Shown here: piece after piece, positions 41,340 through 47,530 of the stretch | Numbering within the stretch: the stretch's first letter is position 1 | Layout of the letters: each line of letters opens with the position of its first letter | Assembly (NCBI GenBank): GCA_965223505.1 | Contig: CBDCWP010000043.1 | Location: 32,213 to 96,212, forward strand | Direction of reading: 5' to 3' | Source: Planctomycetota bacterium | GTDB taxonomy: Bacteria > Planctomycetota > PLA2 > JAEUHO01 | Length of the DNA: 64,000 nucleotides | Notes under the pieces: generated by a model | The model's database searches: none | The model's input: the letters and a program-made list of their open reading frames with translations, nothing else | Told to the model about the DNA's origin: nothing | Position numbers and translations under genes: made by a program

Positions 41340-42617
41340 GTGGAGACATCGATGTCGGTCCTTCGCAATGCCAGTGTGGCGCTTTGCCTGCTCGCGATCG
41401 CAGCGGCATGCGGCGAGTCGCCGGCCGGGAAGCAGCCCACGTCTTCGATCGAGCTGAACGCGGACACGTTTGCGGCCCTCCGCGACCAGATCCAACCGTC
41501 CGAGGCCGAGCGTGCGTGGCAGCAGATCGACTGGTATCCGTCCTACGCGGAGGGTCTGCAGGCGGCGTCGGTGCAGCAGAAGCCCGTGCTCCTGTGGGTG
41601 ATGAACGGCCACCCGCTCGGCTGTACCTGAAACAACGGTGTCGCGGGCCGGCGGTCCGTGTGGTCGAACCCGGACGTGATCGAAACGGCGAAGCCGTTCG
41701 TGGCGGTCACCGACGAAGTCTGGCGACTGCAGCGCGGCACGGACGCGGAGTGCCGCCACTTTCAGAAGATGGCCGACCAGGGCCACTACCGGGCCAAGGG
41801 CGGCACGCGCCAGGGCATCTACGTCCTCACGGCGAACGGAACGTTCCTCGCATCGGTCAACGCGCTCGACGCGGCGAAGGTGCTCGAGACCATGGAGCAG
41901 GGACTCGCCGCGTGGGAAGAGACGTCCGCGGACGCGCGCACGCTCCCCGACGACTGGGACCTCCCGCGCCGCCGCTGGGAGTCGAGCTATCCCGAGGACG
42001 GTCTGGTGCTGCGTACCCTCAACGCCGACCTCGGGCCGAACGCGGATCGCAAGCGTCTCAATCGCGACCACGTCTGGTTCACGGTCGGGGAGGCGCGTGG
42101 CTGGCTCGGTGCGGATCCGGCTGTCGGCGACGTCCACGAGGTCACGAAGACGATCGTCGAACGGCTCGCGCAGTTTCATCTCGTCGACAACGTGCGCGGC
42201 CAGACGCTGCCGTTCGCGGCGGAAGAGACCGCGGGGTCCAGGATCACGACGACGGTGCGCTCGCGCGACGGCGACGTCGTGGCGTTCGGGATCGAGGGAA
42301 CGACGACCGCGGAGACCGACGGCACGTGGAAGTTGGGCAAGAGCGACTGGACGCCCAAGGAGGCGTTCCCGCGCCGCGTCACGACGAAGCTGCTCGGCTC
42401 CGGCCGCTACGACCTGTCGTCGCGGCGCTTCACGGCGTTCGAGCTGGTCGCGGTGGGGGAGCGCGAGGGGCGGACGAACCTGAACGGGCGGCGCGACGAC
42501 GACGTCGGGCCCGCCCCGATCGGGTTCTACTTCGAGCTCGCGCCGGATCGACCGGCGGAGCGCGTCGCGCCCGCGTTCGTCGACATCTACGCGGACTGGG
42601 TCGTTGACCCGCGCTGA
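41340..42617 (+). CDS. candidate selenoprotein: lipoprotein with thioredoxin-like N-domain, in-frame UGA (41628..41630) giving ...VLLWVMNGHPLGCT-U-NNG..., fused in frame to the 41658 ORF
   Basis: 41340 ORF and 41658 ORF share one frame separated by a single TGA; Cys two residues before the TGA (C-T-U); hairpin CGCGGGCC-GGC-GGTCCGTG starting 11 nt after the TGA. Confidence 0.45.
41642..41660 (+). promoter_or_regulatory. SECIS-like stem-loop (8-bp stem incl. 2 G-U, GGC loop) 11 nt downstream of in-frame UGA
   Basis: Loop G lies ~20 nt from the UGA, within the 16-37 nt window described for bacterial SECIS elements. Confidence 0.3.
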
Positions 42618-46273: not shown

Positions 46274-46507
46274 GGGTGCTCCTTGCGGGGGCCGGAAGGT
46301 ACCACCTCGCCCTTCGATGGTCGGTTTCGCGCCACGCCGGAATCCGGCCCGCGGCCTACCGGGGATCCGCACGGGGCGGTAGCCGATCCGCGATTTTCGT
46401 CCCGATTCGGCCCAATCGGCAGGATTCGAAATTGCGCGACGCCTTCGATTGGAGGTCGCGTGAGCTAGAATCCCGGCTCAGGGCATGCGCCCCTGGGAGT
46501 ACCCGCT

Positions 46508-47530
46508 ATGCGTATCTGCACACTTCTCGGCGCAACCGCGCTCGCGTTCCTTCTCGCCACGACGGCTTGGTCCGAAGGCGGCATCGCCGTCGGCGAAGAG
46601 GCCCCCGACTTCGAGGGCGGTGACGTCCTCAACTCCGAGCCGATCAAGGTCGGCGACCTGAAGGGACGGTTGATCCTGCTGGAGCTCTTCAGCACGACCT
46701 GAGGTCCGTGCAAGACTCAGGTCGGGCACCTGAACGAGCTTCACGAAACGTACGATGGCAAGGGACTCACGGTTCTCTCGGTGACCGGTGAGGACAGGGA
46801 CCGAGTCGAGCCCTTCGTCGAGGAGTTCGGCGCGAACTTTCCCATCATGTGCCAGGCACAGTCGGGCGCGTACTCGACGGGCGGCGTTCCGTCCGCGTAC
46901 CTGATCGGCGCCGACGGCACCGTCGTATGGCAAGGCCATCCGGGCAATCTCCAGGATTCCGAGATCGAAGGACATCTGAAGGACGTCAAGAAAGCCGACC
47001 GCGTGAGCACGTGGGCCTTCACGATCGTCAAGCAGCTGCCGCCGGTTCCGGACAAGCTCAAGGGCGTCAAGAAGAGCCTCGAGAAGATGAAGTTCGGCGC
47101 CGCGCTCAAGACCGTGGAAGCGGCGCTTCCGAAGCTCGAAGGCGAAGATCTCGAGGCCGGCGAGGCGATCCGCGACTGGATCGCCGGCAACGGGAAGACC
47201 AGCATGGACAAAGCCGCCACGCTCGTGCGCGAGAACAAGATCTACGACGCGTTCCTCGTGTACGAGGGTGTCGAGGACCGCTTCAAGGGACACCAGCTCG
47301 GCAAGGACGCGAAGGCCGCCGCCAAGGAGCTCAAGAGCGGCAAGGAAACCGGTCTCGAGATCAAGGCATCCGAGAAGCTCATCAAGGCCAAGAAGGAAAT
47401 GCGCGGCGAAAAGAAGTTCGAAGACCAGCTCAAGTGCTTGAAGCCGGTTCTCTCGAAGAAGTACGCCGAGACCGCAGCCGGCAAGGAAGCGGCCAAGATG
47501 GCCGAGGACATCGAGGCGAAGCTCAAGTAG
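46508..47530 (+). CDS. candidate selenoprotein: secreted TlpA/ResA-like thiol-disulfide oxidoreductase with active site T-U-G-P-C (UGA at 46700..46702) fused in frame to the 46781 ORF
   Basis: 46508 ORF (signal peptide, ...GRLILLELFSTT) and 46781 ORF share one frame across a single TGA; readthrough gives the canonical Trx-fold W-C-G-P-C position as U-G-P-C; hairpin TCAGGT-CGGGC-ACCTGA 14 nt downstream. Confidence 0.6.
46717..46733 (+). promoter_or_regulatory. SECIS-like stem-loop (6-bp stem, CGGGC loop) 14 nt downstream of in-frame UGA
   Basis: Loop Gs 22-24 nt after the UGA. Confidence 0.3.

Follow-up and report, generated by a model that had tools for sequence, protein, structure and literature searches.

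TlpA-like selenoproteins with a UxxC active site have already been catalogued as a class (PMC1794560; PMC13188914 Table 1), and some Planctomycetes contain a complete Sec machinery together with split thioredoxin-like selenoprotein candidates (PMC4807772). The published model of the bacterial SECIS element (bSECIS) describes a loop of 3-9 nt with a G among its first two positions, a stem of 4-16 bp, and a spacing of 16-37 nt (PMC13188914). Here, we show that in the window under study, i.e., the whole stretch of 64,000 nucleotides analyzed, positions 46508..47530 very probably constitute one gene, which encodes a predicted secreted (periplasmic) TlpA/ResA-like thiol-disulfide oxidoreductase with a selenocysteine nucleophile in U65-G-P-C68, and which appears as two ORFs because this active-site residue would be a selenocysteine encoded by TGA. 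The features of this gene are as follows.

46495..46499, + strand: Shine-Dalgarno-like GGGAG, 8 nt 5′ of the ATG, read from the sequence
46508..47530, + strand: very probable single selenoprotein gene of 340 codons, one of them for Sec, followed by a TAG stop, from the one-frame translation and tblastn HSPs to 20 other loci that span the TGA
46508..46573, + strand: predicted N-terminal signal peptide MRICTLLGATALAFLLATTAWS, assigned by inspection of the sequence
46580..47002, + strand: domain with a TlpA/ResA-like thioredoxin fold (residues ~25-165), containing the active site U65-G-P-C68 and the cis-Pro loop G-V-P128, from Pfam, NCBIfam and Foldseek
46700..46702, + strand: TGA very probably encoding selenocysteine (residue 65), where CxxC proteins have their first Cys, from TGA at the homologous codon in 22/22 loci and Cys in full-length homologs
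47039..47527, + strand: C-terminal all-helical domain of ~165 aa, TPR-like at best, from the AF2 model (pLDDT 94-98, 47-sequence alignment)

A single frame runs from the ATG at 46508 to the TAG at 47528-47530, with one internal TGA at 46700-46702. The upstream ORF (46508..46702) has 64 codons, extends from the signal peptide to LILLELFSTT and closes with this TGA; the remainder, 46703..47530, is in frame with it and has no further stop before the TAG, and the first start codon of the downstream ORF in the ORF listing is the GTG at 46781, which shares the frame of the ATG at 46508. The joined translation, ...GRLILLELFSTT*GPCKTQVGHLNELHETYDGKGLTVLSVTGE..., gives a product of 340 aa with U-G-P-C at the ResA/TlpA CxxC site, and is identical to the reading in the first-pass annotation, where two ORFs in the same frame were noted and Sec was placed in LFSTT-U. 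Signal peptidase I probably cleaves after AWS, to judge from the sequence; homologs have comparable hydrophobic N-termini closing in AxA-like motifs, and the AF2 model shows residues 1-24 as disordered and with low confidence.

With Cys in place of U, the joined protein matches Pfam AhpC-TSA over residues 28-141 (54.8 bits, cutoff 26) and Redoxin (36.5 bits), and it matches NCBIfam ResA over residues 9-161 (E = 2.5e-23). Foldseek aligned the full-length model with whole ResA chains and with 4nmu at TM 0.74-0.81, and P128 is invariant in alignment A5. The view that one ResA-like thioredoxin fold spans the TGA is supported by Pfam, the PDB profile, AlphaFold and Foldseek. These findings bear on a different reading, in which the locus yields a 64-aa secreted peptide and an independent protein of ~250-270 aa starting at the internal GTG. 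Public gene calls are all of this form, one of them (258 aa) being named ‘TlpA family protein disulfide reductase’. However, the downstream ORF alone aligns only to ResA residues 53-151 (PDB profile) and has no signal peptide, no strand beta1 and no CxxC motif, the beginning of helix alpha1 being absent too, while the upstream piece stops exactly one residue before G-P-C; in addition, the frame and the junction are kept in 22/22 loci, and the Cys forms are single proteins of 322-334 aa. We therefore regard two separate products as extremely unlikely. About 55 database homologs all begin at or after VGHLN, directly 3′ of the TGA, which indicates that public gene calls are truncated likewise, and every Sec-form member found is truncated in this way, just as the first-pass annotation expected of ORF callers, which would truncate or split the gene. 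The C-terminal helical domain gave no significant match in Pfam, PDB sequences or Foldseek, where its best matches were BamD and YbgF at E > 0.05, and a search of 1.84 billion representatives recovered it in only 46 protein clusters.

Comparison with relatives demonstrated that the same codon is TGA in 22/22 homologous loci, i.e., all those that were readable, with the named ones all from Planctomycetota MAGs; an in-frame TGA this consistently placed is not due to chance. Coding sequence is kept on either side of the TGA, with the downstream ORF in frame with the upstream one in all 22 loci, and in tblastn the HSPs with 20 other loci pass through the codon unbroken. The 40 codons 5′ of the TGA show 47-68% identity in 18 of the 20 loci compared, where third-position changes exceed those at first and second positions, a pattern that argues for purifying selection in this frame; identity over the same codons is 28-30% in the two most distant loci, L020 and L021. 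Four homologs with the same thioredoxin plus helical-domain architecture (P0203, P0219, P0225 and P0234), and the more distant but also full-length P0057, carry xCGPC with Cys at the TGA-aligned column (e.g., ...LFELFSTGCGPCRAQVGHLN...), in agreement with the earlier proposal that Sec replaces the first Cys of the motif and that Cys-containing orthologs should exist. In a single sequence, one TGC-to-TGA change in an ordinary Cys-containing tlpA-like gene, whether through decay to a pseudogene or through a sequencing or assembly error, would give the same picture; since 22 independent assemblies, whose proteins are 32-62% identical, share this TGA, and purifying selection acts on the sequence both before and after it, the comparative data effectively refute this explanation and leave it next to no chance. 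A DUF1570 gene is a neighbour in the window; the operon of the two genes suggested previously recurs in none of the other loci.

The region immediately 3′ of the TGA contains two further candidate features.

46717..46733, + strand: putative bacterial SECIS, upper stem-loop UCAGGU-CGGGC-ACCUGA, UGA-to-loop 20 nt, from the fold and the same site in 22 loci
46700..46743, + strand: possible extended SECIS, with a lower stem between UGAGGU, at the UGA codon, and GCUUCA (MFE -14.0 kcal/mol); the lower stem is tentative, since alignments show it only partly conserved in relatives

The 6-bp hairpin (TCAGGT/ACCTGA, loop CGGGC) is separated from the TGA by 14 nt, as the first-pass annotation described. 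Taken alone, it is unremarkable: the 64-nt region is no more stably folded than its dinucleotide shuffles (z = +0.95), the z of the hairpin against synonymous recoding is only -1.2, and the energy of the hairpin, -7.0 kcal/mol, narrowly misses the threshold of -7.5 kcal/mol. It is the weakest of the set, with a pair probability of about 0.4 and a competing alternative fold, and an Rfam search of the region matched no family. Its significance rests on comparison with homologs, as a small hairpin whose loop is rich in G occurs at +13..+34 in 22/22 loci, in four sequence variants, with a mean z of -1.95 against synonymous recoding and negative values in all 22. In variant B (12 sequences), pair 17-27 is C-G in seven, G-C in four and U-A in one, a covariation score matched by no shuffle. 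Variant A, to which the window's hairpin belongs, has the same hairpin register in 8 loci (94.6% paired); its helix is invariant in these members, so covariation gives it no support, and its self-complementarity is partly a consequence of the conserved Q-V-G-H-L codons.

These hairpins also weigh on whether the UGA might be read through without a Sec system, by a near-cognate Trp or Cys tRNA or under a reassigned code, giving a full-length, selenium-free protein. No tRNA-Sec was found when the 64-kb window was searched, and one homolog of the window's second, unrelated TGA family carries a Trp codon (TGG) in place of the TGA, which indicates that TGA/TGG interchange occurs in the lineage. Nevertheless, TGA is the stop of 9/25 confident ORFs in the window, showing that the code is not reassigned; full-length homologs carry Cys, not Trp, at the TGA position; and simple leaky readthrough needs neither a hairpin kept at a constant spacing across 22 loci nor the covariation seen in one variant. 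Moreover, the related MAG MO_035.B4 carries a genuine tRNA-Sec gene (Rfam RF01852, 70.9 bits) at a distance of 4 kb from its ortholog, locus L004. We consider Sec-free readthrough highly unlikely. The second TGA family is represented in the window by a gene at 41340..42617 with a conserved in-frame TGA and a GCT-U motif, which looks less well described than the TlpA-like gene.

With selenocysteine as the preferred reading, a ribosome arriving at the UGA (46700-46702) would meet, 14 nt further on within the coding sequence, a hairpin whose G-rich apical loop may recruit a SelB-type elongation factor with Sec-tRNA(Sec), so that Sec would be inserted in place of termination. The signal peptide would then export the product, where the thioredoxin-fold domain may exchange its selenenylsulfide with substrate disulfides, or possibly peroxides. 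A CcdA/DsbD-type membrane electron transporter presumably keeps the oxidoreductase reduced, and the C-terminal helical domain probably binds a protein partner or substrate.

Compared with known systems, the window hairpin fits the bSECIS model (PMC13188914), with 5 nt in the loop (CGGGC), 6 bp in the stem and a spacing of 20 nt, which, together with its position kept in 22 loci, is consistent with the compatibility with a bacterial SECIS first noted from the sequence; its loop has GGG, in contrast to GGU in most relatives. This gene very probably adds a fairly ordinary new member to a known class of bacterial selenoproteins.

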